Virus record (IMG/VR): IMGVR_UViG_3300045136_000892
DNA length: 64,000 nt
Direction: 5' to 3' (one strand)
Origin: a virus
The notes under the pieces are model-generated. The model ran no database searches, was not told where the DNA came from, and was given only the letters and a program-made list of their open reading frames with translations. The position numbers and the translations under genes were made by a program. Shown here in pieces: positions 1-64,000 of the stretch; position 1 is the stretch's first letter; every line of letters begins with the position of its first letter.

Positions 1-1149
1 ATGCCGAAGAAGCGGCCCGAGCCGTTCTGGCGAGAGCAGACGAAGTGCTTCTACGTCCAGATCGGCAAGAAGCAGCACCGCCTCGATCCCGACGAGGCGA
101 CCGCCTGGCGGCTCTATCATGAGCTGATGGCCAGGCCGCCGGAACAGCCCGCCATCATCCCCTCCTCGCTGGCCGCTGTCGAGGTGGTCGACCTCTTCCT
201 CGATTGGTGCCAGAAGAACCGCGACCGGCTCACCTACGAAGCCTACCGCCGCCGCCTCCAGAATCTCGCCGACGGCATCCCCCACACGCTCCCTTGCCAG
301 GACCTGAAGCCCTACCACCTGACCCGGATCATCGACTCCAAGGGGTGGAACTCGACCACGAAGAACGATTTCCTCGCCGCCGTCCAGCGGGCATTCAACT
401 GGGCACTGACGGAAGGCATCATCGCCCAGACCCCGCTGGCGAAGCTGAAGAAACCGGCCCGCGAGATCCGCGAGCTGGCCGTCACCCCGGCCGATTACGC
501 GGAGGTCATGGAGGCCGTCGAGGAGCCGAACTTCCGCGCCCTGCTCGATTTCGCGTGGGAAACCGGCGTCAGACCGCAGGAAGTGGTCAAGATCGAGGCC
601 CGGCACATCGCAGGAAACCGCATCGTGCTCCCGCCCAGGGAGGCCAAGGGGAAGAAGCGGCACCGGATCATCTACCTGACGGAAGCCGGCATGGCCTTGG
701 TGGCCCCCCTGGCAGAGCAGCGGCCGGCAGGCCCGTTGTTCCGCAATTCCGATGGGTCGCCGTGGAACAAGGACTCCATCAACTGCGCCATGCGCCGCCT
801 CCGGCTCCGGCTGGCCGAGCAGATGATGGATCGTGATGGCCACCCGCGACCGAAACGCGGCCGCATCCCGAGGGGGCTGACCAGCCAGGCCCGCGCCGAC
901 CGGCAGGACGCCCTGCAGCGATGGAAAGCGGAGCGAGCGCGGTACGTTCGCGAGAAGGTGCCGAAGTTCCACCTGGGGGCGTGGAGGAAGGGGTACACCA
1001 CGCAGGCGCTGAAGAACGGCGTCGAGCTGACGGCCCTCGCCTCGCTCCTTGGCCACCAGGATGGGCGGATGATCGCCACGACCTACGGCAAGGTCTATCA
1101 GGACCACCTTCACATGGAGGAGATGGCCAAGAAGGCGAGGAAGTCTTGA
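1..1149 (+). CDS. int: Tyrosine recombinase/integrase
   Basis: ETGVRPQE (catalytic R), AKGKK, AWRKGY, LLGH and TTYG motifs; short N-terminal arm-binding region. Confidence 0.92.
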   Translation: MPKKRPEPFWREQTKCFYVQIGKKQHRLDPDEATAWRLYHELMARPPEQPAIIPSSLAAVEVVDLFLDWCQKNRDRLTYEAYRRRLQNLADGIPHTLPCQDLKPYHLTRIIDSKGWNSTTKNDFLAAVQRAFNWALTEGIIAQTPLAKLKKPAREIRELAVTPADYAEVMEAVEEPNFRALLDFAWETGVRPQEVVKIEARHIAGNRIVLPPREAKGKKRHRIIYLTEAGMALVAPLAEQRPAGPLFRNSDGSPWNKDSINCAMRRLRLRLAEQMMDRDGHPRPKRGRIPRGLTSQARADRQDALQRWKAERARYVREKVPKFHLGAWRKGYTTQALKNGVELTALASLLGHQDGRMIATTYGKVYQDHLHMEEMAKKARKS

Positions 1150-1257
1150 TCCGCCAAACGGCCAGGTCCAGCACGACCCCGAGTACATGGCCTCGCTTTC
1201 GGAGCGGACGAAGCGGAAGCGGAAGGCCGCAGATGGCTGACCTTTGGCTGGGGCGGC

Positions 1258-1785
1258 TCAGAGGGCGGGCGCTGGGGCCTGGCGACCGGAGAAAGGCACC
1301 AGCTCGGCTCCCTTCGGCAGGTACAGCGGGTGCCGCGGATGGCCATCCCGCGTGAGGCCAAGAGCAAAAGGGCGGACGCCCAGAGCGTCGAGCCAGCCGA
1401 GGACGACGCCGTCCTGGCCAAGGTGTTCGCCGTGAACGCCCCAGGCGCACACCACCGGGCCATCGTGACCAGCCCGCAGCTTTCGGTCGAACCACGCCCG
1501 GTTCTCCGACCCGACGGGTTCCACCGCCCGTTTCAGATCGGCGGGGTCGGTCGCCCGGAAGGCGAACAGGTTGAGCACGGCCAGCCTTCCGCATCCCCAC
1601 TGCCGGGCGTACCCGATACAGCGCCTGATGGTCGGATCGTCCTTCGTGGCATCGGCCGTCGAGGGATTCAACATGATGAACGTGGCCGTGCGCAAGCCGG
1701 GGCCGACCTGGCGGGTCAGCAGGTAGCGGTACCGCCCGCAAGTGGAGATGACGGCGTTCTGTCCGACGGGAAGGTCGAGGAGCAT
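1258..1785 (-). CDS. DUF1643 family protein
   Basis: CGRYRYLLTR, FIMLNPSTAD, DDPTIRRC, NLFAFRAT and PRHPLY motifs; ATG overlaps the upstream stop. Confidence 0.85.
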   Translation of the reverse strand: MLLDLPVGQNAVISTCGRYRYLLTRQVGPGLRTATFIMLNPSTADATKDDPTIRRCIGYARQWGCGRLAVLNLFAFRATDPADLKRAVEPVGSENRAWFDRKLRAGHDGPVVCAWGVHGEHLGQDGVVLGWLDALGVRPFALGLTRDGHPRHPLYLPKGAELVPFSGRQAPAPAL

Positions 1786-3461
1786 CAGGCCGCCACCTTC
1801 TTCCGGTCCAGATACCGCTCGACAAGCTTCCGCAGATGGCTGGTGTCGTTCTCTTTGACCTCGACGCCGAGATACGGATCCACGATGTGCTGGGCCTCGG
1901 ACGCCTTGATCCCCAGGACGTCCATGATCGGCGGGTCGCTGCCGTCGTCCGTCACCAGGAAGAACGCGGTCACAGGATTCTGCTGGCCCTCCCGGTCCAG
2001 GCGCCAGATGCACTGCTGATGGATGCCGGGCGACCAGTCGAGCTCGCCGAAGATCCCGGTGCAACAACGGTGCTGGAGCCCGTCGACGCCGGCCCCGCTC
2101 CGGAGCGACATGATGAGGACGTCCGTCTCACCGTTCAGGAAGCGGGCCTTCGCCGCGTCCTTCTTCCCGGCGGTCTCGCTCCCCGTGTACATGGCGGGCT
2201 TCAGGTCGGCCAGCTCCCGGTTCCAGATGTCGTACACCTCGCGGTGCCAGCCCCAGAGGACCACGGCCTCGCCCGCCTCGACCATCATCCGGGCGAACGC
2301 GGCCACCGTCCTGGCCTTGGCCACGCCGGTCGTCTGCCGCATCATGATGTCCAGCTCGCGGGCGGCGCTCCCCCGCTCGACGAAGCTGGCCGTGGTCGCC
2401 TTGATGGCGAGGGCTCTGGCCAGATCCTCGACGGCCGAGACCGTCTTCTCGTCGTAGTCGATGTGCTCGACGATGCGGGAGACCTTCGGCAGTTGCTGGC
2501 CGACGTCCGACTTGAGCCGCCGGAGCATGACGTACTGCTCGCGGAGGTAGGTGCCGAGGGCCTTCGGGTCCTTGATCCGGTACTTGCCGTTGCCGATGGC
2601 GTCGCACCACTCCCGCTCGAACTCCGGCCACTGCCCGAGCGCGGTGTCGTCGATGAACTGCATGATGTGCCACATCTCGTCGCCGTAGTTGTAGATTGGC
2701 GTGGCGGTCAGGCCGAGATGGAAGGTGGTATGGGCCGAGAGCACCTTGCACGCAGAGCCCTTCGCGGTGCTCGCGCCCGTCCGGAGCGATTGTGGCTCGT
2801 CGTAGGTGACCGACTTGAAGTACCCCGTGGCGAAGATGTCCGACCATCCGGCCACCTGGCTGATCCGGTAGACGTAAACGTCTGCGGGCGGCAGCTCGTA
2901 GGGGCTGCCCTTCTTGATCAGATGGACCCGAAGGTGGGTGAACGCCTCGATCTTCTCCTTCCACTGGCGCTGCATGTGGGCGTCGCAGACCACGGCCGCA
3001 GGGAGCGCGGACGGCTCGGACACCATGAACCCTGCGGCGGTGTAGGTCTTGCCCAGGCCCCCCTCGTCGCCCAGAAGCAGGCGCCCGCGCCTCCGTAGCA
3101 CCTCGATGGCCTGCCACTGGTAGGGCCGGAGCTGCTGCCCCTCCCGCAGCTTGACGCTGCCGTCCGGGACGTAGTCCGGCATCAGGATCCGCTCCATCTC
3201 CGCCTGGCGTTGCAGGAACGACTCTCGGCCGCTCTCCAGGGACGCCCGGTCAGCCTCGGAGATGTCCAGCGGGTATCGCTGCATGAACCAGTCGAGGTCG
3301 GTGTCCGTCACGATGCTGTGCGGGAGATGGTAGGGCGGGATCGCTGCCTTCGGGATACTCGGAAAAAGCTGCTTGAGGCGGATCGAGACATGCGGCTCGG
3401 CGCGGCCGATGATCCACTGGGTCTTGTCGTGGGAGAGCGAGACGGCGCCGTAGGACCTCAT
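1785..3461 (-). CDS. SNF2-family helicase/ATPase
   Basis: LRPYQ, GDEGGLGKT, DEPQ, LTATPIYN, GAGVDGLQ and QCIWRLDR SF2 motifs. Confidence 0.88.
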   Translation of the reverse strand: MRSYGAVSLSHDKTQWIIGRAEPHVSIRLKQLFPSIPKAAIPPYHLPHSIVTDTDLDWFMQRYPLDISEADRASLESGRESFLQRQAEMERILMPDYVPDGSVKLREGQQLRPYQWQAIEVLRRRGRLLLGDEGGLGKTYTAAGFMVSEPSALPAAVVCDAHMQRQWKEKIEAFTHLRVHLIKKGSPYELPPADVYVYRISQVAGWSDIFATGYFKSVTYDEPQSLRTGASTAKGSACKVLSAHTTFHLGLTATPIYNYGDEMWHIMQFIDDTALGQWPEFEREWCDAIGNGKYRIKDPKALGTYLREQYVMLRRLKSDVGQQLPKVSRIVEHIDYDEKTVSAVEDLARALAIKATTASFVERGSAARELDIMMRQTTGVAKARTVAAFARMMVEAGEAVVLWGWHREVYDIWNRELADLKPAMYTGSETAGKKDAAKARFLNGETDVLIMSLRSGAGVDGLQHRCCTGIFGELDWSPGIHQQCIWRLDREGQQNPVTAFFLVTDDGSDPPIMDVLGIKASEAQHIVDPYLGVEVKENDTSHLRKLVERYLDRKKVAA

Positions 3462-3820
3462 AGCCACGCCTCGCCCAGCCTCACGAAATAGGCGTCCTTA
3501 CCCTCGATCTGGGCGGGAAGGCCCATGCTGAGGTTGGATGCCAGGATCAGGGAACCGACGCGGGGATGGTGGGCATAGCGGCAGAGTTGCCGGTAGACAT
3601 CCTTCTTGCGGGCGCCCTTGAGTTTCAGCTCGATCCCGACATCCCCGACCAGGAAGTCCACGATGTCCGATTCCGTCAGGGGGAACTCGCGATCAAACGC
3701 GATCCCGGCTTGCGTCATAACCTGCTCGACATCGGCCTGAGCCCGCTTCTCGCTGGACAGGTCGATCCTCGCGCTTCGGATGAGGCCGATGAGAGTCTCG
3801 ATACTCGAATTGCCGACCAT
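3458..3820 (-). CDS. PD-(D/E)XK nuclease-like protein
   Basis: E...IVDFLV..IELK and QLCRY motifs; coupled to the SNF2 gene. Confidence 0.6.
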   Translation of the reverse strand: MVGNSSIETLIGLIRSARIDLSSEKRAQADVEQVMTQAGIAFDREFPLTESDIVDFLVGDVGIELKLKGARKKDVYRQLCRYAHHPRVGSLILASNLSMGLPAQIEGKDAYFVRLGEAWL

Positions 3821-3822
3821 GG

Positions 3823-4188
3823 CTACCTCGCCCGCCCGTTTCCCTTCCCGAAAGACCGCTCGGCCAGCTTATCGACCTGGCTTACCTCCCGAAAGGGCGG
3901 CTGCAGCTCGCAGATCGGCACCTCGACGTAGCCCGAGCGGACCATCTGGCCGGTCGGCTTCACCACGCCGGCGGCGACAAGGGCGTCGAGCATGCCCTCG
4001 TTTTCGGAGTAGCTCTTGATGGCCACCTGATTCCTGCCCAGGGGAACGTCGGGAAGGTTCACCGTGGCCGCGGCAATGGGCGAGCCGTCTTCGGCGTCGA
4101 TCAGCTGCAGGGCCGGGCGGCCATTGTCGTACTGACGCTTGCAGACGATGCAATCCCAGGATTTGAAGCGGACGCGGACGGGGGTCAT
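3823..4188 (-). CDS. DUF4313-like protein with a basic C-terminal tail
   Basis: YDNGRPALQL, ATVNL and SGYVEVP pattern. Confidence 0.55.
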   Translation of the reverse strand: MTPVRVRFKSWDCIVCKRQYDNGRPALQLIDAEDGSPIAAATVNLPDVPLGRNQVAIKSYSENEGMLDALVAAGVVKPTGQMVRSGYVEVPICELQPPFREVSQVDKLAERSFGKGNGRAR

Positions 4189-4499
4189 AGGGCCTCGCGC
4201 TCGGAGACGGCGGGAGTACGCTCATCCTTGAAGGGATATGTCTTGAACTTCTGCGGGGGCCTGCCGAACATCTTCTCGAAGCTGCTGCTTTGGGCGATGA
4301 TGCAATATTCACGGCCATCCCCTCCCCTGACGATCTTGAAGCGGCCGTCGCCGTCTCGGCCCTTCAATACGACTTCGCCACCCTCCAGCTTCACAATTCG
4401 GGGCAGCATGAAGGGATAGTCCGCGTTCATGTGCATCCCGTCCGGCAGAGCGTGCGATGCCTCGGCGAATGTCTTCACGTACTTTCCGCAGACACTCAT
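4185..4499 (-). CDS. Hypothetical protein
   Basis: ATGA overlaps with both neighbours. Confidence 0.6.
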   Translation of the reverse strand: MSVCGKYVKTFAEASHALPDGMHMNADYPFMLPRIVKLEGGEVVLKGRDGDGRFKIVRGGDGREYCIIAQSSSFEKMFGRPPQKFKTYPFKDERTPAVSEREAL

Positions 4500-5197
4500 A
4501 CTCTCTCCTCCCACGCCGAGACACAGACCGGCACGATAGGCCGGATCAACTCGCGCATAGCGTCGGCATAGACACGGATCTCATACTGGGCATGGCCGTC
4601 GCAGCGGAGGGTCAGGAACTTGAGCAGGTTGAGCAGGTTCACCGTGGCGAACATGTGGCTGTAGGTTGCCACCGGCAGGACGGAGCGGGCAAGTTCGCGG
4701 GGCCAGCCTCCTTCAATGAGGCGGCGATACTGGGCGAAAGCCCCTTCCATCACTTCGCGCGCGTGCTCGACCTCTGCGCGGCGTTGCTCAAGCATGGCCG
4801 CGTCGGTATCCCCGATGTCCCTGGCCTGCTTGCTACTCGCCGACTGCTGGCCGATGAGAGCGGGGTCGGGGACGTAGAACTCCTCCGGCAGCTCCCGATA
4901 CCGGGCGGAAAGCTCGTTGTAGCTCCATGTCCGGTGGCGGTGCCACTGGCGGAAGACGAAGATCGGGGCTTTGATCTCGAAGGTGAAGCTAACCGCCTCA
5001 AACGGCGTCGTGTGGCGGTTCTTCCAGAGGTAGCGAATCAGCCGAGCGTCGCTGCCCTGATCCTCACCGGCACGCCAGGCAGCGTCATACGAGACACGGG
5101 CCGCACGGACCACCGACAAATCGGACCCCATCGAGTCAACCAGACGGACGAAGCCATGATCGAGAACGTCGATCCGCGCGTTCTCAGGCGGCTGCAT
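4496..5197 (-). CDS. thyX: FAD-dependent thymidylate synthase
   Basis: RHRTWSYNELSARY signature, HTTPFE, ELARSVLP, HAQYEIR. Confidence 0.95.
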   Translation of the reverse strand: MQPPENARIDVLDHGFVRLVDSMGSDLSVVRAARVSYDAAWRAGEDQGSDARLIRYLWKNRHTTPFEAVSFTFEIKAPIFVFRQWHRHRTWSYNELSARYRELPEEFYVPDPALIGQQSASSKQARDIGDTDAAMLEQRRAEVEHAREVMEGAFAQYRRLIEGGWPRELARSVLPVATYSHMFATVNLLNLLKFLTLRCDGHAQYEIRVYADAMRELIRPIVPVCVSAWEERV

Positions 5198-5420
5198 TCG
5201 ACGGGGCTTTCGCTGCGGTTTCTGCCTCCAGGCGCTGAATCTCGCGGTCGATGTACCAGCGGGCCTTCTTCAGGTCTTCCAAACCGTTCTTGTGGTCGGA
5301 GCGCCAGAGGTATTTCATGGCGTTTCCGACGTTGAAGTTCATGTGCTCCGTGACGGTGATGCACTCGACGCCCGAAGGGTGCGAATTGTAGTGCTTGGGA
5401 TGGTTGACGTTGTCTGACAC
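5184..5420 (-). CDS. DUF3310 (SaV-like) phage protein
   Basis: VNHPKHY...GNAMKYLWR...EDLKKARWY. Confidence 0.88.
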   Translation of the reverse strand: MSDNVNHPKHYNSHPSGVECITVTEHMNFNVGNAMKYLWRSDHKNGLEDLKKARWYIDREIQRLEAETAAKAPSNAAA

Positions 5421-5459: not shown

Positions 5460-5639
5460 TTAATTCGCAGTAAGGTGCTGGCGATGGAGCTCGCGGATTC
5501 TGGCTTCCTCGGGACGGCCGATGCCTCGCGATCCGGCGAGCCAGTGCCCTACGGCACGTTCAGTCACGCCGACGAACTCGGCCACAACCTTTTTGCCCCC
5601 TACCGCGTCGCAGATTTCCCGGAATTCTTCCTTGGTCAT
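5460..5639 (-). CDS. Small Cro/XRE-like HTH protein
   Basis: VAEFVGVTERAVGHWLAG HTH; ATGA overlap with the DUF475 stop. Confidence 0.7.
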   Translation of the reverse strand: MTKEEFREICDAVGGKKVVAEFVGVTERAVGHWLAGSRGIGRPEEARIRELHRQHLTAN

Positions 5640-6538
5640 GCCAGCCTCCGGTTGTGCGAGACCGATGAGGCCAGCGACGCCAGGATGCAGCCCGCCCCGA
5701 CCAGCCCCGTGACCGCCTCGGGGACGTGCCAGCTCGTGCTGCCGAGCATCAGGACCGCCAGAGCTCCGATCCCCCAGTGCGCACCGTGTTCGAGATAGAC
5801 GAACTGGGCCAGCGTGCCGTTGCGGACCAGCCGGACGGTCATCGACCGGATCACGAGGGCCCCGATGCCGAGGCCAATCATGATGGCCACGATGTCGTTC
5901 GTGATGGCGAAAGCCCCGATCACCCCGTCCAGCGAAAAGCTGGCGTCGAGGATCTCGAGGTAGAGGAACCCGACCAGCCCCTGCCGGCCCGCGACGCAGG
6001 CGGCCGCTTCCTCGCCATCGCCGCAGAGCCCCATCGCGCCCTTGATGGCGATGTAGCAAAGCAGCCCCAGCAGTCCGGCGACGACCGACGCCCCGGGGAC
6101 GGCCAGGAGAACGGCGATAGCCAGGCCGATCTCCACGGCCTCCATGCGGCCGATCTGCACGAGCCGCCGCTCGACCCAGCCCAGCCAGTGGACGTCCTTG
6201 GCCTCGTCGCAGACGAACTGCAGGAAGACCATCAGCAGGAACATCCCGCCGAAGGACGCGATCGCGGTATGGGCCTCGGAGAGACGCCGGCCGTACTCCA
6301 CCGCGTCCGAGACGGCCAGGATTGCGACGTCGTCGATGCTTCCGCCCCCGGCGAGGGAGACGATCAGCACTGGGAGCACCAGGCGCATCCCGAAGACGGC
6401 GATGAGGATGCCCCAGGTGAGAAAGCGGCGCTGCCAGATCTGGGGCATGTTCTTCAGCACCGAGGCGTTAACGACGGCGTTGTCGAAGGACAGGGAGACT
6501 TCGAGGACAGCAAGGAGGAGGACGGTGAACAGGATCAT
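5636..6538 (-). CDS. DUF475 family (TerC-like) integral membrane protein
   Basis: LEVSLSFDNAVVNA, LEILDASFSLDGVIGAFA and YLEHGAHW motifs. Confidence 0.9.
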   Translation of the reverse strand: MILFTVLLLAVLEVSLSFDNAVVNASVLKNMPQIWQRRFLTWGILIAVFGMRLVLPVLIVSLAGGGSIDDVAILAVSDAVEYGRRLSEAHTAIASFGGMFLLMVFLQFVCDEAKDVHWLGWVERRLVQIGRMEAVEIGLAIAVLLAVPGASVVAGLLGLLCYIAIKGAMGLCGDGEEAAACVAGRQGLVGFLYLEILDASFSLDGVIGAFAITNDIVAIMIGLGIGALVIRSMTVRLVRNGTLAQFVYLEHGAHWGIGALAVLMLGSTSWHVPEAVTGLVGAGCILASLASSVSHNRRLA

Positions 6539-6615
6539 TTCGAGAACCAGCGGGAAATTTTCACAGTGACGTAGACGATGACACCGACGGCGAGGAACAG
6601 AAGCAGATTGATCAC
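6535..6615 (-). CDS. 26-aa single-TM micropeptide (MINLLLFLAVGVIVYVTVKISRWFSK), absent from the ORF track
   Basis: GTG overlaps the upstream TGA and its TGA overlaps the DUF475 ATG; hydrophobic core. Confidence 0.6.
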   Translation of the reverse strand: MINLLLFLAVGVIVYVTVKISRWFSK

Positions 6616-6839
6616 CGCTTGCACTCCCCGCCGACCTGGGCCAATGGGAGGCAGAACATCCCGCCTTCCTTGCCGTCGGCGTCGAGAAAGCACACGACCT
6701 CATAGCCATCCGGCTTGCAGATAGAGTAGATCCCGGTGATCGTGACCATCCGCTTGAAGCCGCCGTCGCCCATGACCGTCAGGATGCCGACCACTAAGGC
6801 CACACCGATCAGACCGGCGGCGAACATCAGCCGACTCAT
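6612..6839 (-). CDS. Small membrane-anchored Cys-rich protein
   Basis: N-terminal TM, four Cys; ATGA overlap. Confidence 0.65.
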   Translation of the reverse strand: MSRLMFAAGLIGVALVVGILTVMGDGGFKRMVTITGIYSICKPDGYEVVCFLDADGKEGGMFCLPLAQVGGECKR

Positions 6840-7089: not shown

Positions 7090-7668
7090 TTATGCTGCGA
7101 CCTGCAGGCCGAAGCGAGTAGCGAGAGAACCCAGTTCGCCGGCTTCCGCTTCACCGACTGCCACGAAGTTCCAGTCGGATCCGTCGCGCACCAGCTTGCC
7201 GAGCACGAACGTCGCGCCGGTGTAGTCGCCGGTGATCTTGTAGTTGGCGATCTCCTGCTGGTTCTCGGCGTTGACGATGCGGATGTGGGCGTTGTCGAGG
7301 TCTTTCAGGCTCTGCCCTTTCTGCGCAGCCTGATAGATCGAGGCCACGAAGAGGATTTCCTTGATGCCTTCGGGCACGGTCGTGAGGTTGACGTCGATCA
7401 CTTCGTCGTCGCCCTCTCCCTCGCCAGTCAGGTTGTCGCCGCGGCTGGCGACCGAGCCGCAGGCCGAGACTTTAGAGCCGAAATACACGAAGCCGCCCTT
7501 GCCCGGCAGCTTGCCGTTGGCATCGAGCAGGAATGCCGCGAGGTCGAGGTCCATGGTCTTGCCCTGCTTGGGGTCCCAACCGGCACCAGCGAAAACCTTC
7601 GTCAGGCCGGGAGCCTTCTTGGTCAGGGAGACGGTATCGCCTTTGGTCATTGAAACAATATCGTTCAT
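7090..7668 (-). CDS. terD: TerD family stress protein
   Basis: GAGWD, DLDLAAFLL, GDNLTGEGEGDDE and WNFVAVG motifs. Confidence 0.93.
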   Translation of the reverse strand: MNDIVSMTKGDTVSLTKKAPGLTKVFAGAGWDPKQGKTMDLDLAAFLLDANGKLPGKGGFVYFGSKVSACGSVASRGDNLTGEGEGDDEVIDVNLTTVPEGIKEILFVASIYQAAQKGQSLKDLDNAHIRIVNAENQQEIANYKITGDYTGATFVLGKLVRDGSDWNFVAVGEAEAGELGSLATRFGLQVAA

Positions 7669-7772: not shown

Positions 7773-8000
7773 TCACCGGTGCAGATGCTTCAGTTTCGCC
7801 CGCCGGACCGGTGCCGGGGGCGGACCTTGCACGATCACCGGCTCCGACGCCCTCAGATACTCCGCCAGGTGCTCCTCGGAGATGCGTATGCAGCCCCGGC
7901 CGAGACCGACGCGATGGCAGCGCAGCTTGCCGGAGGCTACCAGCGCATAGACCGTAGCCTGACTGACGTCGAGCCGCTGTGCTGCCTCCCGCACCCGCAT
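7773..8000 (-). CDS. xis: Excisionase-like HTH_17 DNA-binding protein
   Basis: VREAAQRLDVSQATVYALV..GKL...RI; encoded opposite the integrase. Confidence 0.8.
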   Translation of the reverse strand: MRVREAAQRLDVSQATVYALVASGKLRCHRVGLGRGCIRISEEHLAEYLRASEPVIVQGPPPAPVRRAKLKHLHR

Positions 8001-8019
8001 GTCCGGTCTCCTTGTCCTT

Positions 8020-55773: not shown

Positions 55774-57513
55774 ATGTTCGAGGCTTACAAGGTCGGAGTC
55801 ACGCTGGCGCTGCACAGCAACGTAAGCGCCGCGCTGGGCCTGATCGCCCGCGACTTCGTCAAGACCGACCTCGAGGCCAAGAAGCTCCAGAAGACCCTCA
55901 AGGAGATCAAGCTGCTCGGGCTGACCGGGGCCATCGTCGGCGGGGCCGGATTCATGGGGCTGGGCCTGATCAAGTCCGCCGTCAAGCCCGCCAGCGAGTA
56001 CGTCCACCAGCTCGAACTGGCCAAGGCCGCCGGGATGAAGCAGCAGGAGATCGCCGAAGCCACCGCCGCCGCCTGGAAGACCGCCGGCGAGGTGATGACC
56101 AGCAGCCCGACCGAGAATCTCAAGGCCATCCGCGAGCTGCGCATGGTCTTCGGCGACACGATGGAGGCCATCCACTTCCTGCCCCAGATGCAGCGCATCC
56201 AGGCCGTGCTCGACGCCACCCTGCACGGGACCGGAGGAATCGGCGCCAGGGACGTGGCGTTCGCCGCCGCCAAGGCCCTCGAACTCCGCGGCGCGTCGAT
56301 GAGCCCGCAGACCTTCCAGGAGCAGGCCGACTACATGACCAGGGCGGTCATCGCCTCCGGCGGCAAGGTCACGCCCCAGATGCTGCTCCAGATGCAGAAA
56401 TACGCGGGCATCGGCGGCACGAGCTACAGCAACGACTTCCTCTACGGCATCGCCCCCACGCTGGTGCAGGAACTGGGCGGGTCCCAGACCGGCAACTCGC
56501 TGACCAGCATGTACCGAGCCATCGTGGGCGGCCGGATCGACAAGAAGGCCCTGGCCGTCTGGCAGCAGATGGGCCTGCTCCAGAGCGTCAAGGGGATCAC
56601 CGGCGAGAGCGCGATGATCCAGGCGAAGAACGCGGGGCTCTTCCAGGATAACCCGTTCCTTTACATGCAGTTCCTGCAGGGCGAGTTGGCCAAGCGGGGC
56701 ATCACCGACCCGAAGGCCCAGCAGGAGGTCATCGAGCGGCTCTTCTCGAACCGCGTGGCGGGCCGCATGGCCAATATCCTCATGATGCAGGGGCCCCGGC
56801 TCCAGAAGGATTTCGAGCTGATCAAGGGGGCCGGAGACTCCAGCGCCTATTACGACCTGATCAAGCGCGACCCGCCCACCGTCTACAGGGCGCTCGATGC
56901 CCAATGGGACGCCCTGAAAACCGCCCTCGGCATGACCGTGGTCCCGGTCATCATCCCCATGCTGCGGGGCCTCACGAACGCCCTAAACTCGCTCGCCACA
57001 TTCGCGGCCGACCATCCAACGCTGACCCAGGGGCTGATGCTGACGTTCGGCGGCCTGTCGGCTCTCGCCACGCTGGGCGGCACCCTGATGATCGCCGGGG
57101 CGGGCCTCAAGGTCATCGGCCTGGTCCTGACCACGCTCACCGGCCTGCCGCTGGCCGTCGCCGCCACCGGCCTTGGCACGCTGACCGCCGCCGTGGCGGA
57201 AGTGGTCGGGCTGGGCATGGCCGTCGCCAATGCGGACACGATCGGCGGCTGGAAGTACAACCCCATCAACATGATCGAGCAGGGCGGCGAGGCCGTCGGC
57301 GGCTGGCTCAAGGGAAAGATGGCCCCCAGCTACGGCCCGCCGATGCGGGAGAACTCGCGCGAGATCCACACCACCGTCAACATCGACGGCCGGAAGGTCG
57401 CGCACGCCGTGAACAAGCACAACGAGCGGGCCGCGTCCCGCCCCTCCGGCTCCGGCGGAGCGCCCGATTACCGTGCGATCCCACGTCACTCGGGATCGGG
57501 CGGGGGCCGGTAG
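55774..57513 (+). CDS. Tape measure protein
   Basis: 579 aa, helical, Ala/Gly-rich with C-terminal TMs; ends VNIDGRKVA. Confidence 0.8.
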   Translation: MFEAYKVGVTLALHSNVSAALGLIARDFVKTDLEAKKLQKTLKEIKLLGLTGAIVGGAGFMGLGLIKSAVKPASEYVHQLELAKAAGMKQQEIAEATAAAWKTAGEVMTSSPTENLKAIRELRMVFGDTMEAIHFLPQMQRIQAVLDATLHGTGGIGARDVAFAAAKALELRGASMSPQTFQEQADYMTRAVIASGGKVTPQMLLQMQKYAGIGGTSYSNDFLYGIAPTLVQELGGSQTGNSLTSMYRAIVGGRIDKKALAVWQQMGLLQSVKGITGESAMIQAKNAGLFQDNPFLYMQFLQGELAKRGITDPKAQQEVIERLFSNRVAGRMANILMMQGPRLQKDFELIKGAGDSSAYYDLIKRDPPTVYRALDAQWDALKTALGMTVVPVIIPMLRGLTNALNSLATFAADHPTLTQGLMLTFGGLSALATLGGTLMIAGAGLKVIGLVLTTLTGLPLAVAATGLGTLTAAVAEVVGLGMAVANADTIGGWKYNPINMIEQGGEAVGGWLKGKMAPSYGPPMRENSREIHTTVNIDGRKVAHAVNKHNERAASRPSGSGGAPDYRAIPRHSGSGGGR

Positions 57514-57516: not shown

Positions 57517-58308
57517 ATGACCGTCACCCTCACCCTCGGCGGGGTCGTCTTCACCGGCTTCGAGATCCCCGAGACCATCAACTTCGGCGGCGAGCAGAAG
57601 CTGGCCATCCACAAGCTGCCGGGCGGGGGCCGCGTCATCGACGCGATGGGCCCGAACGACGCCGACATCCGCTGGTCCGGGCGGCTCCGGGGGCCGAGCA
57701 GCGAGCAGCGGGGTATCCTGCTGGATTTCATGCGGCGGCGCGGCAGAAAAATCCTGCTGGCCTGGGGCCTGCACCGGTTCCAGGTCGTCATCCGCTCGTT
57801 CGAGGCCAACTACCAGAGCCCGCACGAAATCCCCTATAGCATCGTTTGCACCGTGGTCCTGGACGAGGCTCAGGCCATTGCGTCTTTCGCCGCCGGCCTG
57901 GCCGAGTCGCTGGCTTCAGACCTGGTGGAAGCCGCCGGGCTGAGCGACCTGATTGGGAGCGAGGAGATCAGCGCCGCCGTGGACGGCGTGGCCGCCGGCT
58001 TCAGCAACTTCCAGGCGGGCGTGCCGTGGTCCACCAACCTCATCACCGCCGCCATCGCGCCGACGGAAGGGGCGATCCTGGGCGGAATGCTCACCTCGGC
58101 CGCCGGGGCCCAGGCTCTGGTGGGCAAGGCCATCTCGAACATCAACCTCGGGCTGGGCACCTTGCTGCCGGCCGCGGGCGGGGCGGTCTCCGACATGGCC
58201 GCCGGCCTGGTGGAGCAGGCATCCGACTTTGCCCAGCTGAACAATCTCCACCGCCTGTCCGACTCGCTCGGGCGCATGACGCTGAACATCAGCAATTTTG
58301 GGAGCTGA
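57517..58308 (+). CDS. Tail tube initiator/baseplate protein
   Basis: LTLGGV.F..FEIPE.I.FGG.Q; follows the tape measure. Confidence 0.65.
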   Translation: MTVTLTLGGVVFTGFEIPETINFGGEQKLAIHKLPGGGRVIDAMGPNDADIRWSGRLRGPSSEQRGILLDFMRRRGRKILLAWGLHRFQVVIRSFEANYQSPHEIPYSIVCTVVLDEAQAIASFAAGLAESLASDLVEAAGLSDLIGSEEISAAVDGVAAGFSNFQAGVPWSTNLITAAIAPTEGAILGGMLTSAAGAQALVGKAISNINLGLGTLLPAAGGAVSDMAAGLVEQASDFAQLNNLHRLSDSLGRMTLNISNFGS

Positions 58309-58311
58309 GAA

Positions 58312-58503
58312 ATGAAAACCGTGACCGTCGCCGGCGGCAACCTGTTCGTGCTGGCCCTTGAGCATCTCGGGGACGCCACGCAGTGGAACCGGATTGCCCA
58401 GGCCAACGGGCTGCTCGATCCGTTCCTCACCGGCACGGCGGTACTGCGCATCCCGGCGGCGGACCGGAACGCGGGCGGAGGCGTCTTTGTTCCTGCTCGG
58501 TGA
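58312..58503 (+). CDS. LysM-like tail protein (P2 gpX-like)
   Basis: NLF.LA..HLGDATQW.RIAQANGL.DP...LRIP. Confidence 0.75.
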   Translation: MKTVTVAGGNLFVLALEHLGDATQWNRIAQANGLLDPFLTGTAVLRIPAADRNAGGGVFVPAR

Positions 58504-59584
58504 CCTGAACCCCGTCGTCCTGAGCGACGTCCGCCGGCCGGTCGTCGAGCTCACCGTCAACGGCATCCCCATCCCGGGCCTGATCGAGGCCGAGGTGACG
58601 AACAACACGCACTTCGCCTCGGACACCTTCCATGCAGTCCTGGCGCTCTCCGAGTTGCCCGCCGCCTACGGCCCCGATTACTGGGCGAATTCCGTGTACG
58701 ACCGGATCGGCATCGCCGCCGGGTTCGCGGGCGAGCGGCTGATGCCGCTGATCCTGGGGCAGGTGGACGAGATCGACTACGACCCGGTGCGCCGGACCAT
58801 CACCCTGAGCGGGCGGGACCTGTCGGCCCCGCTGATCGACGCCAAGACCGCCGAGAAGTTCGTCAACCAGACCGCCAGCCAGATCGCCGAGACGCTGGCC
58901 GACCGCCACGGCCTCCTCTCGAAAGTCCAGGCCACGAGCACCAAGGCGGGCACCTACTACAGCCACGAGCACGTCGTGCTGACCCAGGAGCAATCCGAGT
59001 GGGACCTGCTCGTCTACCTCGCCGAGCAGGAAGGGTTCGACGTCTGGGTGACCGGCGACCGGCTGCACTTCGAGCCGTCCCCGCTGCCCACCAACCCGGC
59101 TTACAAGATCGCCTGGGACGAGGCGGCGCTGGCCTCCAACGCCCTCGACATCCGCCTGAGCCGGTCGCAGACGCTGGCCAGGGACGTGATCGTCATCGTG
59201 CGGAGCTGGAACCAGAAGCTGCAGCGGGCCTTCAAGGTCGAATTTCGGGTCGCGCGGCTGGCGAACGGCGAGAGGGAAGCGGGGCGCAGGGCGTTCCAGA
59301 CCTATAGCTTCAACGTCCCGAACCTGACCCGGGACCAGTGCCTTGCCCTGGCGAAGGCGAAGGCCGAGGAGATCACCCGGCACGAGCGCGTGCTGACCGC
59401 GAGCCTCCCCGGCGACAGCAAGCTCACCACGCGGGCGATGATCCATCTGGTCGGGGCCGGCAACGGCTGGGACCAGCTCTATTACCCGGATTCGGTCACC
59501 CGCCGCATCTCGTTCGAGGAGGGATACCGCATGGACCTGCGCGCCAAGAACCACGGCACCCAGAGCACGGTGGTGATCGGCTGA
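58487..59584 (+). CDS. Baseplate hub (P2 gpD/Mu gp44-like)
   Basis: TTG start after GGAGG; LSGRDL and SEWDLL..LA..EG. Confidence 0.78.
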   Translation: MFLLGDLNPVVLSDVRRPVVELTVNGIPIPGLIEAEVTNNTHFASDTFHAVLALSELPAAYGPDYWANSVYDRIGIAAGFAGERLMPLILGQVDEIDYDPVRRTITLSGRDLSAPLIDAKTAEKFVNQTASQIAETLADRHGLLSKVQATSTKAGTYYSHEHVVLTQEQSEWDLLVYLAEQEGFDVWVTGDRLHFEPSPLPTNPAYKIAWDEAALASNALDIRLSRSQTLARDVIVIVRSWNQKLQRAFKVEFRVARLANGEREAGRRAFQTYSFNVPNLTRDQCLALAKAKAEEITRHERVLTASLPGDSKLTTRAMIHLVGAGNGWDQLYYPDSVTRRISFEEGYRMDLRAKNHGTQSTVVIG

Positions 59585-60234
59585 TGGACGGCTTGACCAA
59601 CATGATGCGCCGGGAGGCGGCACGGGCGATGACCCAGCTCTCCCTCACCCGCATCGGCGTCGTGAGCAACTACGACCCGGCCACCTACTCGGCCAAGGTT
59701 CGCATCCAGCCCGAGGACGTGGAGACCGGGTGGCTGCCCGTCGCCAGCCTCTGGGTCGGCAACGGCTGGGGCCTCTTCGCGCCGCCAAAGGTCGGGGACG
59801 TGGTCGAGGTGCGGTTCCAGGAGGGCGGCAAGGAGGCTGGCATCGTCGGCCTGCGCCACTACGGGGACGCCCTGAGACCGCTCGCGGTGCCATCCGGCGA
59901 ATTCTGGCTCCAGCACGCCTCGGGCAGCTTCCTGAAGTTCAGGAACGACGGCTCGGTGGAACTGCACACCGCGGGCGACCTGAACGCCACGGTGGCGGGC
60001 CAGGCCAACCTGACGGTGACGGGCAACGTGGTGGCCTCGGCCTCGCAGTTCAACCTGACCGGCGACGTGAATATCACCGGTGATGTGACGGTGGACGGGG
60101 AAATATTCGCCACCGGCGACATCACGGACCTGAACGGCACCGATGGCACCGTGGGGCACATCAGAGACGTGTACAACACGCACACCCACCCGACCCCGAG
60201 CGGGACCAGCGGCGTGCCCAATGAGCAACTGTAG
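59584..60234 (+). CDS. Baseplate spike (gpV-like)
   Basis: ETGWLP...P.VGD.V.V; C-terminal HTH metal-binding tip. Confidence 0.85.
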   Translation: MDGLTNMMRREAARAMTQLSLTRIGVVSNYDPATYSAKVRIQPEDVETGWLPVASLWVGNGWGLFAPPKVGDVVEVRFQEGGKEAGIVGLRHYGDALRPLAVPSGEFWLQHASGSFLKFRNDGSVELHTAGDLNATVAGQANLTVTGNVVASASQFNLTGDVNITGDVTVDGEIFATGDITDLNGTDGTVGHIRDVYNTHTHPTPSGTSGVPNEQL

Positions 60235-60240
60235 GGCGAC

Positions 60241-60606
60241 ATGGCAGACATCGGACACTACTTCTCAGGCGACCTCGGCCTGGGGGCGACCGGCGGGCTG
60301 CAGGCGGCCGAGGGCTCCCTCCTCAGCCGGCAGCGCATCCTGCGCCGCCTGCTGACAAACCCCGGCGATTACATCTGGGAACCGGACTACGGGGCGGGGC
60401 TTCCCAGGTTCATCGGCCAGAAGCTCGACCTGACGGCGCTCACGGCCCTGATCCGCTCGCAGATGTACCTGGAAGGCAGCGTCCAGCAGCAGCCGGAGCC
60501 GCAGATCGAACTCACGCCCATCCTGAACGGCGTCTTCGTGCGCATCGTCTACGTCGAGGCGCAGACCGGCAGGACCGAGACTCTGGCCTTCGAAGTAACC
60601 GCGTAA
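60241..60606 (+). CDS. Baseplate wedge (gpW/gp25-like)
   Basis: QRILRRLLTNPG.Y...PDYGAG. Confidence 0.75.
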   Translation: MADIGHYFSGDLGLGATGGLQAAEGSLLSRQRILRRLLTNPGDYIWEPDYGAGLPRFIGQKLDLTALTALIRSQMYLEGSVQQQPEPQIELTPILNGVFVRIVYVEAQTGRTETLAFEVTA

Positions 60607-60615
60607 GGACACCGA

Positions 60616-61737
60616 ATGGCTCTTCAGACCTACACCTTCAACCAGATCGTCTCCGGGATCGCCACCGCTACCCAGGCCGCCGCGTCCTCCCTGATCGAAT
60701 TCGGCGTCGGCTCCATCCTGCGGGCACTCGCCCAGGCCGTGGCCGGGCAGCTCCTCTGGCTCCAGGCCATCGTCCTGCAGGTTCTCACGCTCACCCGCGC
60801 GGCCACGAGCGTCGGGGCCGACCTCGACTCCTGGTGCGCCGACTTCGGCTTCGCCCGGCTCCCGGCCCGGGCCGCCACCGGCCAGGTGATGTTCTCCCGG
60901 TTCACGTCGACGCAACAGGCCGTGGTCCCGGTCGGCGCCACGGTCCAGACCGCTGACGGCAGCCAGACCTTCGCCGTCACGGTCGATACCAGCAACAGCG
61001 CGTATAACGCCGGTCTCGGCGGCTATGTCATCCTGGCGAACACCGCCAGCGTGAACGTGCCCGTGCAGGCCGTCGTTGGGGGCAGCGGCGGGAACGTCCA
61101 GGCGGGGGCCATCTCCGTCATCACCTCGCCGATCGCTGGCGTGGACACGGTGACCAACTCCGCCGGATTCCTGAACGGGGCGGACGCCGAGCCCGACGCC
61201 GACTTCCGCGCCCGGTTCGTGCTCTTCCTGGCCTCGCTTTCCAGGGCCACCAAATCGGCCATCGGCTCTGCCATCCTCGGCGTGCAGCAGGGCCTGAACT
61301 ACACGATCACCGAGAACCAGAACTACAACGGCACGGCCAACCAGGGGTACTTCTACGTGGTGGTCGATGACGGGACCGGGCAGGCGTCCGCCGACCTGCT
61401 GAACAAGGTGAACGCGGCGATCGACGGGGTCCGCCCCTTCACCAGCAGCTTCGGCGTGTTCGCGCCCGCCATCGTCACGGCGAACGTGGCCATGACGGTC
61501 ACCTCCGCGCCCGGCTACAACCACCCGACCGTCGTCGGCAACGTCGGGGTGGCGCTCACGAACTTCCTGAACAGCCTCAAGCTCGGCGTGTCGGTGCCCT
61601 ACACACAGATCGCCAGCGTCGCCTACGGGGTGCCGGGCGTGCAGAACGTGACCGGGGTCGAACTCAACGGCGGCACGGCAGACCTGGCCGCCAACCAAAA
61701 ACAACGAATTGTTGCAGGAGTCATGACCATCGGCTAG
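60616..61737 (+). CDS. Baseplate J protein
   Basis: AATGQV.F, GNVQAG.I and NGADAE.DADFRAR. Confidence 0.9.
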   Translation: MALQTYTFNQIVSGIATATQAAASSLIEFGVGSILRALAQAVAGQLLWLQAIVLQVLTLTRAATSVGADLDSWCADFGFARLPARAATGQVMFSRFTSTQQAVVPVGATVQTADGSQTFAVTVDTSNSAYNAGLGGYVILANTASVNVPVQAVVGGSGGNVQAGAISVITSPIAGVDTVTNSAGFLNGADAEPDADFRARFVLFLASLSRATKSAIGSAILGVQQGLNYTITENQNYNGTANQGYFYVVVDDGTGQASADLLNKVNAAIDGVRPFTSSFGVFAPAIVTANVAMTVTSAPGYNHPTVVGNVGVALTNFLNSLKLGVSVPYTQIASVAYGVPGVQNVTGVELNGGTADLAANQKQRIVAGVMTIG

Positions 61738-61746
61738 CACTGGGAT

Positions 61747-62496
61747 ATGAGGGTTACTCGAATATATGTGCTTTGCGATCCTGATACCGGCGAAGTTCGC
61801 TATGTAGGTAAAACCGCAATGCGCCTTTGCAATCGACTTGCAAAGCACATGGAGGCCAATCCGAAGGTGTATTCCGGTCGGTGGATAGGGAAGCTAAAAG
61901 CTGAAGGGAAGCGACCAATAATCCGTTGCATCGAGGAAGTCGGCGATAATTGGGCCGAGCGAGAGTGTTATTGGATCGCATATTACCGAAGCCAAGGATG
62001 CCAGCTCACAAACGTGAGTCCTGGCGGCGACGGACATAACGGACATGTTACGGCAATAAGCACTCGCAGAAAGCTGTCAAATGCCCGAAAAGGCAAGAAG
62101 CTGCCGCCAGACGTCATCCGAAAAATATCGGAATCACAAAAAGGGAAAGTCATCACGCAAGAGCAGCGCGCCAAGATCAGCGCCTCACTCAAGGGACGGA
62201 AGCGTCCCAGAGAAATCGCCGAGAAGGTAGCAGCTATCATGCGTGGCAAGAAGAAGCGACCGATGACGCCGGAGCAGAAGGCTCTCATCAGCGCCAGAAA
62301 CAAGGGCAGGAAACCTACTGCCGAGGAACGCGCTAAAATGTCTGCTGCAAATCGCGGCAAGCCTAAATCTGAGGAACATCGTCGTAAGTTGTCAGAGGCA
62401 GCAATGAACCGGGTGCTATCTCCTGAGAGGAAGAAGGCTCTGTCAGAAGCGGCAACGTTGCGAAACATTCGTAGGAAGATGAATGGCCACTGGTGA
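61747..62496 (+). CDS. Free-standing GIY-YIG endonuclease with NUMOD3-like repeats
   Basis: IYVL.DP...VRYVGKT...RL..H, E.YWI and LTN; repeated E.R.KIS...KG; low GC. Confidence 0.88.
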   Translation: MRVTRIYVLCDPDTGEVRYVGKTAMRLCNRLAKHMEANPKVYSGRWIGKLKAEGKRPIIRCIEEVGDNWAERECYWIAYYRSQGCQLTNVSPGGDGHNGHVTAISTRRKLSNARKGKKLPPDVIRKISESQKGKVITQEQRAKISASLKGRKRPREIAEKVAAIMRGKKKRPMTPEQKALISARNKGRKPTAEERAKMSAANRGKPKSEEHRRKLSEAAMNRVLSPERKKALSEAATLRNIRRKMNGHW

Positions 62497-63148
62497 TCGA
62501 TCCGATTTCTCCTCGCGAATCAAGGCCGTCCTCCCGGGCGGCTGGTTCCGCGACGAGACCCCCATCCTCGACGGCGTGCTGGCCGGCATCGGCTGGGCGC
62601 TGGCCGCAGCCTACGGGCTGGCCGACTACGCCCGGAGGCAGTGCCGCATCGGCACGGCCACCGACGGCTTCCTCGACCTGATCGCCTTCGATTTCTTCGG
62701 CTCCGGGCTGCCCCGCAAGCGGCAGGAGACCGACGACGCGTATCGCACGCGTATCCTCGCCGCCCTGTTCCCCGAGAAGGGCACCCGCAGGGGCCTGATC
62801 CGGACGCTGGAGATCCTCACCGGCCGCACCCCGTGGGTGTTCGAGCCGAGCAGGCCCGACGATACGGGCGGCTACGGCGTGGGCGGCGTGGGCTACGGCG
62901 TGGGCGGCGGCTACGGCTCGTTGGAGATGCCCCACCAGGCCTTCGTGGTCGCCTACCGGCCGCTCGGGCAAGGCATCCCCAACATCGCCGGGTACGGCGT
63001 CCCGAGTGGCGGCTACGGCCAGGCAAGCCAGGCGATGTACGCAAGCCTCGCGCTCGTCCAGGGCGCCGTGACGGATGCGGACATCTACGCCGCTGTCGAC
63101 GCGGTGAAGCCTGCCGCGACCACGGTGTGGACCCAGATTCAAAGCTAA
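62483..63148 (+). CDS. Baseplate wedge (gpI-like)
   Basis: TATDGFLDLIA.DFFG and ETDDAYR.RI; follows baseplate J. Confidence 0.75.
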   Translation: MATGDRSDFSSRIKAVLPGGWFRDETPILDGVLAGIGWALAAAYGLADYARRQCRIGTATDGFLDLIAFDFFGSGLPRKRQETDDAYRTRILAALFPEKGTRRGLIRTLEILTGRTPWVFEPSRPDDTGGYGVGGVGYGVGGGYGSLEMPHQAFVVAYRPLGQGIPNIAGYGVPSGGYGQASQAMYASLALVQGAVTDADIYAAVDAVKPAATTVWTQIQS

Positions 63149-63163
63149 CAACCAGGAGACCTT

Positions 63164-64000
63164 ATGGATCGTGAGATCGTGTACCAGGGCCAGATCCCGC
63201 TCGAAACCGACCTGCTGCTCACCAACAAGAACACGATGGTGGCACTCGGCTTCCTCATGCGCGCGGTGCTCGGCACGAGCCTGTCGGTCGACGGCCTCGC
63301 CTGCACACCGAACAGCCCCGCGGATATGACCGTGCTGATTGGCCCCGGCTCGATCCACAGCCTGCAGAACGTCGACGGCACGGCCTACGGCACGATCCCG
63401 GCGGATACCACCAACCAGATCGTCAAGCAGGGCATCTCGCTCACCGCTCAGTCGTTCAACTGCCCGGCCCCGGCCACGACGGGGCACTCCATCGTCTACC
63501 TGATCCAGGCGGCCTATCAGGATCTCGACGCGGGGGCGACGGTGCTGCCGTACTACAACGCCTCCGACCCGACCCAGGCCTGGAGCGGCCCGAACAACTC
63601 GGGCGTGTCGCAGAACACGGTCCGCAAGGGGGTCTGCCTCCTGGGCGTGAAGGCGGGCACCTCCGCCACCACCGGCACGCAGGCGACGCCGGCCCCCGAC
63701 GCGGGCTACGTCGGCCTCTACGCCGTCACGGTGGCCAACGGCCAGACGACCATCACGAGCCCCGATATCGTGAGGTTGGCGACCGCCCCTTTCATCGACG
63801 CAAAGCTGCCCGCGATGCTCTCCACGATCCAGAGCGGGGCCGTGACGTTCGCACAGGACACGAGCGGGGCGGCGAACCAGATCAACATCGCCCTGAACCC
63901 GGCCCCGGCCGCGCTGACGAACGGGATGCGGGTCGCGGTCAAGGTGGCGAACTCGGTCACCGGGGCGACGGTCATGAACACGAACGGCCTCGGCAACGTC
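63164..64000 (+). CDS. Tail fibre protein, truncated by the window edge
   Basis: AGGAG RBS; MDREIVYQGQIPLETDLL... open to the end of the window. Confidence 0.75.
   Translation, partial: MDREIVYQGQIPLETDLLLTNKNTMVALGFLMRAVLGTSLSVDGLACTPNSPADMTVLIGPGSIHSLQNVDGTAYGTIPADTTNQIVKQGISLTAQSFNCPAPATTGHSIVYLIQAAYQDLDAGATVLPYYNASDPTQAWSGPNNSGVSQNTVRKGVCLLGVKAGTSATTGTQATPAPDAGYVGLYAVTVANGQTTITSPDIVRLATAPFIDAKLPAMLSTIQSGAVTFAQDTSGAANQINIALNPAPAALTNGMRVAVKVANSVTGATVMNTNGLGNV

Follow-up and report, generated by a model that had tools for sequence, protein, structure and literature searches.

Integrative and mobilizable elements (IMEs) carry an integrase and a relaxase without genes for mating-pair formation (MPF), and rely on the type IV secretion system (T4SS) of a helper conjugative element. 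Phage-ICE tandems, in which a phage is joined to an integrative and conjugative element (ICE), consist of two elements with an integrase each and are not considered hybrids by the authors who described them (Sci Adv 2026, PMC13651849). The streptococcal Phi1207.3 has been termed a conjugative prophage, and it encodes no relaxase (PMC4260502). For the planctomycetes, the parts of a plasmidome preprint that concern us here report 29 MOBF relaxases in 21 chromosomes, together with frequent type IV coupling proteins (T4CPs) and no complete MPF system, and give conjugation among these bacteria as unreported (bioRxiv 10.1101/2024.01.22.576637). Here we analyse a stretch of 64,000 nucleotides (the window) from the viral record IMGVR_UViG_3300045136_000892, which probably covers the left two-thirds of a single integrative element of phage-like type, temperate and contractile-tailed, in a planctomycete host; this element, called element A (about 97.8 kb), has a T4CP and a MOBF relaxase built into it.

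Element A is like an IME in having a tyrosine integrase at a tRNA site, an excisionase-like gene, a MOBF relaxase with a VirD4-type T4CP and no VirB4 or MPF genes; it is unlike one in its complete set of tailed-phage replication, packaging, head, tail and lysis genes, in its size class of 98-120 kb, and in that no helper T4SS was found in samples of the host family or phylum. Phage-plasmids such as P1 are comparable as large temperate tailed phages with plasmid-type genes and a giant helicase-type protein, DarB in the case of P1, but the relatives of element A are integrated in chromosomes at an ssrA-like site and at a tRNA-Leu gene and are not plasmid-maintained, and of plasmid-type partition and replication genes we saw only one for a ParB_N-domain protein, with no ParA or Rep. 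With the chromosomal MOBF and T4CP loci of planctomycetes the element shares the phylum, the gene pair and the lack of a complete MPF system; those loci are not linked to prophages in the parts of the survey considered here (bioRxiv 10.1101/2024.01.22.576637), whereas we find at least eight loci in which the relaxase gene lies 11-22 kb from a phage portal gene, two of them with mapped att sites. What is new here looks like a phage genome that includes a module of IME type for DNA processing and coupling, in a lineage in which no mating pore can be recognised.

The source record, G000, is a single IMG/VR provirus of 142,954 bp, of which the window represents positions 78955-142954 on the minus strand; coordinates marked "ext" carry the window numbering on beyond 64,000. 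Both termini of the record fall exactly at start codons of inward-pointing genes and no host flanks are present, and it was therefore cut at gene borders by the provirus caller. Gene calling was guided by GC3 and complemented with Pfam and PHROG scans. The best DNA identity among 120 genomes of the family was 79-80%. Plasmids and phages, searched by megablast with pieces of 25 kb, yielded trivial matches or none, and the relaxase used as a single-protein query against genome contigs gave no match. The closest relaxase homologues (70% identity) belong to Aquisphaera giovannonii, Tundrisphaera lichenicola and metagenome-assembled genomes of Isosphaeraceae, the remoter ones to Gemmata, Zavarzinella and Limnoglobus. 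The host is assigned, by sequence, to the planctomycete family Isosphaeraceae.

The recombination and transfer genes occupy the left part of the window:

1-1149, plus strand: int1, tyrosine integrase (PF00589), at the left end of the element.
About 7773-8000, minus strand: HTH_17 excisionase-family DNA-binding protein (PF12728, E=1.4e-13), candidate recombination directionality factor.
8673-9377, minus strand: two small conserved genes (61 and 110 aa) adjoining the T4CP gene.
10152-11891, minus strand: VirD4/TraG-type T4CP (PF02534, E=2.7e-79; PF10412, TrwB_AAD_bind; PF12696, TraG-D_C).
24060-24560, minus strand: conserved 166-aa protein, candidate relaxosome accessory, overlapping the 3' end of the relaxase gene.
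24508-27294, minus strand: MOBF (TrwC/TraI) relaxase-helicase of 928 aa (PF08751, E=8.4e-62, residues 11-286).
27561-27606, no strand: long hairpin with perfect 11-bp outer arms, about 270-310 bp upstream of the relaxase gene.

The relaxase aligns with the structure of R388 TrwC (1OMH, E=2.5e-27) and retains all the equivalents of the catalytic residues Y18/Y19, Y26/Y27, D85, H150, H161 and H163; its C-terminal part is a SF1B helicase matching AAA_30 (E=3e-41), TraI_hel_assoc_N and UvrD_C_2, with the Walker A motif GAAGTGKT. Two transmembrane helices within its N-terminal residues 1-38 give the T4CP a membrane anchor; its Walker A motif, FAPTGVGKG, is of VirD4 type. The likeness to the TrwC/TrwB pair of R388 covers the relaxase fold family, the catalytic residues, the C-terminal SF1B helicase and the N-terminal membrane anchor of the T4CP; in contrast, R388 has its own MPF-T T4SS while the element has none, and the T4CP of the element is of the VirD4/TraG (PF02534) type. 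These domains and motifs mark the module as a genuine MOBF relaxase with a VirD4-type T4CP. That the relaxase is merely a replication initiator is unlikely; it is not needed for this function because a separate PrimPol/helicase module is present in the element. The 166-aa protein travels with the relaxase in provirus G001, Tundrisphaera, Aquisphaera and the virion-less element of G081, and the 61-aa and 110-aa genes are kept in the first three of these, the 61-aa gene also in G081. A plus-strand gene call at 7999-8730 was dropped, since the gene at this place appears to be the minus-strand HTH_17 gene. As to the candidate origin of transfer (oriT) noted in the sequence-only reading, a hairpin block conserved in G001 and Tundrisphaera does lie upstream of the relaxase gene at 27561-27606, but no nic motif is assignable in it, and it could be an oriT or equally the 5' leader of the divergent gene starting at about 27637.

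To the right of the transfer genes follows the phage part proper:

28113-32639, both strands: small early and regulatory genes (DUF1508, VRR-NUC-like and others), collinear in G001, Tundrisphaera and Aquisphaera.
32692-39634: phage-type replication and recombination module with SF2 helicase, DUF669, AAA_24 ATPase and PrimPol-PriCT2-DUF3987 primase-helicase.
39638-40027, minus strand: sigma-70 region 4 protein (ECF-like).
41175-45192, plus strand: small terminase (TerS), large terminase (TerL) and portal (PF20901, PF04860, phrog_5989, phrog_2).
46491-48005, plus strand: protein of 504 aa in which an Acb1-like domain (PF23474, E=2e-43) is fused to a protease/scaffold-sized protein.
48037-49044, plus strand: candidate major capsid protein.
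49413-57513, plus strand: head-tail adaptor, tail sheath (51714-53480), small tail proteins and tape measure (55774-57513), by PHROG.
57517-64000, plus strand: baseplate, with gpD-like hub (58358-59584) and baseplate J (60616-61737); baseplate or fibre genes downstream of these extend past the window edge.

A full tailed-phage set of terminase, portal, candidate capsid, tail and lysis genes is thus recognised by Pfam, PHROG and language-model neighbours, the capsid assignment depending on its gene position and on such neighbours only (SU10/HK97 major capsid clusters, score 0.98-0.99). The replication module is 78-95% identical in G001 and Tundrisphaera, the TerS/TerL/portal block 81-87% identical in Aquisphaera and provirus G082, and the baseplate region 55-72% identical in the latter two. 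Over full-length alignments, pairwise dN/dS is 0.16 for the relaxase and 0.22 for the T4CP against G001, and 0.15-0.33 for TerL, portal, capsid and protease-scaffold against Aquisphaera and G082; purifying selection acts on transfer genes and virion genes alike. The parts listed in the sequence-only reading, namely the integrase, excisionase-like gene, SNF2, ThyX, DUF3310, VirD4, methyltransferases, MOBF relaxase and the terminase-to-baseplate set, were all recovered in place by Pfam and PHROG.

Two complete genomes contain relatives with mapped ends. In the chromosome of Tundrisphaera lichenicola, a collinear element of about 117 kb is flanked by a 22-bp direct repeat, of which no third or internal copy occurs within 4 mismatches; to the eye the left copy resembles an ssrA 3' terminus, but ARAGORN made no tmRNA call at this place. 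This element has exactly one PF00589 integrase, adjoining the ssrA-like end, and carries the T4CP, relaxase and replication module as in the window, an HK97-type portal and capsid with tail genes, and then a 1,798-aa SNF2 protein, an RtcB-Ro60 pair flanked by tRNA-like genes and defence cargo up to attR. The 10.37-Mb chromosome of Aquisphaera giovannonii has a collinear element of 119.6 kb, with a 64-bp repeat of tRNA-Leu(CAG) at its ends, a G+C content that falls relative to the flanks and, again, a single PF00589 integrase, which adjoins the tRNA end. Aquisphaera provides what the sequence-only reading had called for, another genome linking this relaxase and T4CP to this terminase and capsid: in comparison with the window its backbone is 96.5% identical in ThyX, 70% in the relaxase and 50% in the T4CP, and its contractile-tail module 84% in TerL, 81% in the portal, 87% in the capsid, 65% in the sheath and 65% in baseplate J. 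The giant SNF2 protein and RtcB encoded farther right in element A are matched there at 79% and 83%, and the replication module is different; a 20-tRNA array stands in place of Ro60.

Two proviruses complete the picture. In G001, which by its matching coordinates is most likely contig 1 of genome G078, the relaxase (87% identity), T4CP (83%) and PrimPol (89%) accompany a siphovirus-like virion module of Tundrisphaera type, and G082, which is cut at both ends, combines a virion module of the window type with a giant SNF2 gene. In G000, G001, Tundrisphaera, Aquisphaera and G082, backbone genes are found both to the left and to the right of the virion module, among them those for giant SNF2 (67-86% identity) and RtcB (80-83%), and this backbone pairs with two virion modules (myovirus-type and HK97/siphovirus-type) and with two replication modules. 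From left to right the family backbone reads integrase, ThyX, DUF3310 and other early genes, HTH_17 gene, VirD4 T4CP, ParB-like protein, methyltransferases, accessory protein with MOBF relaxase-helicase, regulatory and replication module, virion module, lysis genes, giant SNF2, RtcB with Ro60 and Y RNAs or a tRNA array, defence cargo and attR; its members occupy three integration sites with three integrase types. By sequence comparison, the T4CP/relaxase backbone is the constant part, while virion and replication modules are swapped, a pattern known from mosaic temperate phages. In G070, G075, G329 and G330, too, a TrwC gene lies 11-22 kb from a PF04860 portal gene.

The sequence-only reading had taken the mobilisation and virion genes for a single element and had named a misassembly near 28 kb as a possible refutation. 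No misassembly is seen, the relaxase-to-replication junction being collinear in three independent assemblies, and the unity of the element is borne out by the two complete relatives, each with one att pair and one tyrosine integrase, by backbone genes on both sides of the virion module and by a uniform G+C content (0.652, 0.647 and 0.636 in the three parts of element A, as against 0.69 in the following element B). Because of the single att pair and integrase in the relatives, the conserved backbone and the selection on its genes, the relaxase and T4CP appear to be a selected, built-in part of the phage genome and not a neighbouring island; mobilisation and virion genes quite probably form one hybrid element.

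Exact and short-word repeat searches of the 143-kb record gave no convincing att pair around int1 or around a second integrase, int2 (ext 97786-98982; 48% identical to int1). The right end was instead located by searching the record with the tRNA targets of int1-like integrases from other genomes: in G019 and G037 a tRNA-Pro(CGG) gene, and in G021 a tRNA-Ala(CGC) gene, precedes a DNA relative of int1 (66-70% identity) by 85-180 bp. A 51-nt 3' fragment of tRNA-Ala(CGC) at ext 97651-97701, 98% identical to the 3' two-thirds of the tRNA and missing its 5' 24 nt, is the sole copy in the record, and therefore no att-like site is present near 28 kb or at 64-72 kb. By analogy with these integrases, the right end of element A would be this fragment, at ext 97,701, and its left end would lie just left of int1; attL is outside the record, because the latter was cut exactly at the int1 start codon. 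The extent given by the sequence-only reading is accordingly only a part of the element, which runs on to ext ~97.7 kb, where the tRNA-Ala fragment marks its right end, while the left end is off the record.

Eighty-five bp after the tRNA-Ala fragment begins int2, with the same spacer motifs as in G021; a truncated tRNA-Ala with an integrase behind it is characteristic of tandem integration of two elements at a single tRNA-Ala gene. Element B (ext 97651-142954) has int2, an HTH_17 gene, a TrwB-type T4CP and a 548-aa TrwC-domain relaxase, with no virion genes. The earlier claim of a single integrase without internal att consequently holds inside the element, where no att-like tRNA fragment occurs near 28 kb, but not for the record, in which two more tyrosine recombinases lie beyond the window (int2 and the one at ext 141063-142049). 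A second integrase beyond 64 kb, regarded in the sequence-only reading as a possible refutation, thus exists but belongs to element B and does not excise the right part of element A; as excisor of the right part of A, int2 was rejected on account of its position behind the truncated tRNA-Ala, as in G021, at the head of its own T4CP/relaxase element. Phage-ICE tandems, and prophages mobilised by ICEs, are similar in that phage and conjugation functions lie in one excisable unit and in their tandem accretion at one att, here A followed by B, which is the arrangement that resembles them. The phage-plus-relaxase unit itself is not made of two elements with an integrase and att each: the relaxase and T4CP of element A lie inside the phage genome, between integrase and replication module, the mapped relatives having a single integrase and a single att pair, and the transfer partner is MPF-less.

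This arrangement sharpens a puzzle: How would the transfer genes operate in planctomycetes, which are rich in MOBF relaxases and T4CPs and have no recognisable mating channel? The absence of VirB and MPF genes claimed in the sequence-only reading extends to the whole 143-kb record, in which VirB4 (PF03135) was not found, nor does it occur in G001 or in the complete Tundrisphaera genome. Its second proposal, that the element borrows another T4SS, finds no support here: with the VirB4 model PF03135, none of 80 Isosphaeraceae and none of 201 Planctomycetota genomes (281 sampled) gave a match, and the AAA_10 model gave a single marginal one, in 1 of the 80, even if divergent VirB4 types could escape both models. 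Among the same 80 genomes, TrwC is found in 34 and a T4CP in 25. The transfer half is left without a known channel, because VirB4 was not found among the 281 sampled genomes and AAA_10 hardly at all in the 80 of the family, and a mechanism based on a borrowed T4SS is doubtful. The element backbone encodes very few membrane proteins and no VirB4-containing MPF system of its own such as defines an ICE; the IME combination of integrase and relaxase without MPF genes is present, but a helper conjugative T4SS is not seen with the VirB4 and AAA_10 models.

The genome G053, also of Isosphaeraceae, shows a different association, with four prophage-like loci (C1:1177164, C2:1832327, C2:3189396 and C2:3321452) in which a protein of about 350 aa consisting only of the TrwC domain is encoded 14-17 kb from a portal gene, with no T4CP.

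If element A works as its gene content suggests, the integrase and the HTH_17 protein would excise a circle of about 98 kb from the tRNA-Ala site, which would be replicated by the PrimPol/helicase module and packaged by TerS/TerL. By an alternative route, the relaxase would nick an oriT upstream of its own gene, possibly the hairpin at 27561-27606, and the membrane-bound T4CP would pass the complex of relaxase and single-stranded DNA to an exit channel, which, on the genomes sampled, is no VirB4-type T4SS of the element, its host or its relatives. It is conceivable, but a distinctly improbable speculation, that relaxase and T4CP work without a classical mating pore, coupled to the phage particle or tail or to an undescribed planctomycete channel, and that large phages are the missing helpers of the virion-less relaxase/T4CP islands of Planctomycetota, with element B, for example, as a satellite.

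Several observations weigh against a single element that spreads by both routes. Beside the lack of a VirB4-type channel, the oriT is a candidate only, and attL of element A is off the record, its left end being placed by analogy. No free virus contig, with terminal repeats or circular, was found to carry both relaxase and virion genes, the IMG/VR relatives being all proviruses or fragments. A genome of 98-120 kb may exceed the capsid capacity, as distant relatives of the myovirus-type module are phages of 64-67 kb without a relaxase (G083 and G084, for example, have a related TerL and no relaxase). Many relaxase/T4CP loci of the family have no portal nearby, and therefore the module also exists independently of phages. 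This last point, together with the tandem accretion of virion-less element B directly after the truncated tRNA-Ala and the phage-ICE tandems documented in other phyla (PMC13651849), would fit a composite island, in which an IME with integrase, T4CP and relaxase and a separate prophage have accreted at one tRNA site and move independently or only as a tandem. Such an origin is nevertheless very improbable: the att-bounded elements of Tundrisphaera and Aquisphaera have no second integrase or internal att-like repeat, the only tRNA fragment of the record is at 97.65 kb, G+C is uniform throughout element A, and the virion module brings no genes for lysogeny, replication or integration with it and is enclosed on both sides by conserved backbone genes.

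The lack of a channel bears on another explanation, according to which relaxase and T4CP serve a phage function such as rolling-circle genome processing, membrane DNA handling or exclusion of other elements, and not transfer between cells. The VirB4 counts in family and phylum agree with it, as does the absence of reported planctomycete conjugation, so far as the cited parts of the preprint go (bioRxiv 10.1101/2024.01.22.576637), and the short TrwC-only proteins near portals in G053, without T4CP, suggest a role for relaxases inside phages. Yet a complete primase-helicase module for replication is already present in the element, its T4CP retains the complete conjugative domain set, membrane anchor and Walker A motif, its relaxase keeps both catalytic tyrosine pairs and a TraI-type helicase, and the gene pair occurs with its small accessory genes in virion-less elements too, such as that of G081; we regard this explanation as unlikely. 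Somewhat less likely again is a cryptic or domesticated island, whose virion module would be defective or akin to a gene transfer agent and would yield no infectious particles with the whole element. Its large size in comparison with the 64-67-kb phages that have distant versions of the tail and terminase genes, the finding of provirus records only and the large share of defence cargo are consistent with such a state, but none of the virion genes is truncated and purifying selection acts on all of them across species, members have swapped entire virion and replication modules as active temperate phages do, and they occupy three integration sites with three integrase types. The 20-tRNA array of Aquisphaera, a trait typical of large phages, also speaks against an inactive remnant.

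The hybrid element thus remains the preferred reading: in several species, and in combination with several virion types, selection preserves the relaxase and coupling protein intact within one family of large prophages. Should both halves function, a single element would spread as a virus and by cell contact, and such dual spread, if true, would change how we reason about the host range of these elements and their escape from defence. The question is directly testable, as the cultured isolates Aquisphaera giovannonii and Tundrisphaera lichenicola carry members with mapped att sites.

The remaining genes left of the relaxase are early and cargo genes:

1258-1785, minus strand: DUF1643 protein (PF07799, E=6.6e-41).
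1785-3467, minus strand: SNF2/ResIII helicase of 560 aa.
3823-4188, minus strand: small conserved backbone gene, 73% and 67% identical in the Tundrisphaera and Aquisphaera elements.
4496-5197, minus strand: ThyX thymidylate synthase (PF02511, E=1.8e-56), 96.5% identical in the Aquisphaera element.
5184-5420, minus strand: DUF3310 (PF11753, E=1.4e-16).
5636-6709, minus strand: TerC/DUF475 membrane protein, cargo.
7090-7668, minus strand: TerD, cargo.
12800-13711, minus strand: ParB_N-domain protein, conserved in relatives.
15901-18833, plus strand: C5 cytosine methyltransferase and N6/N4 methyltransferase.
15901-19861, plus strand: the whole block of these two methyltransferase genes with a PAPS-reductase-like gene.

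The order of integrase followed by DUF1643 recurs in G019, and the small backbone gene at 3823-4188 lies near the integrase end in both relatives with mapped ends. The TerC/DUF475 and TerD genes, of tellurite-resistance type, stand in the early region of a prophage and have no counterpart in three relatives.

Beyond the window, element A continues with lysis genes, the giant SNF2 gene and its right-end cargo:

ext 69985-71743: endolysin-like Hydrolase_2 gene and small membrane proteins, preceded by fibre-like genes that lie before these coordinates.
ext 72424-72499: tRNA-Gly(UCC) (Rfam 50.3 bits), between the lysis genes and the giant SNF2 gene.
ext 72711-78065: giant SNF2 protein of 1,784 aa.
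ext 78848-85558: HD-domain protein, RtcB and Ro60-like TROVE/vWA protein.
ext 88682-97327: defence-type cargo at the right end, with MmeI-family enzyme, PD-(D/E)XK nuclease, UvrD helicase and DUF6884/TGT-like (DpdA-like) protein.

The N-terminal residues of the giant SNF2 protein, about 880, have no Pfam match; one copy of this gene lies near the right end in every family member examined. Its paralogue in element B (1,823 aa, ext 123719-129190) is 62% identical. After Ro60 follow in order a SNase-domain protein, a 91-nt tRNA (anticodon GTC) a few kb past the HD-RtcB-Ro60 group, an IS1595 transposase and the MmeI-type enzyme, so that the transposase gene is found upstream of the defence-type cargo. 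Element B contains, in addition to the genes mentioned above, two AbiE pairs, ThiF, a dCTP-deaminase-like protein, NERD and NACHT proteins and Ser/Thr kinases, and the recombinase at ext 141063-142049 is a third, XerC-like one.

Three tRNA calls made by ARAGORN without Rfam confirmation were set aside, among them a 93-nt tRNA-Arg in the sheath gene (53174-53266), which is probably spurious, and a tRNA-Leu inside the giant SNF2 gene, which appears so as well. Within the virion module, the Acb1-like anti-CBASS phosphodiesterase domain forms the N-terminus of the 504-aa protein encoded between portal and capsid, in the slot expected for a protease or scaffold, and the fusion is kept at 72-77% identity in Aquisphaera and G082. 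A 256-aa protein encoded after the portal (45196-45966) has a stretch of 79 residues in common with the tail sheath (51714-53480), at 59% identity.

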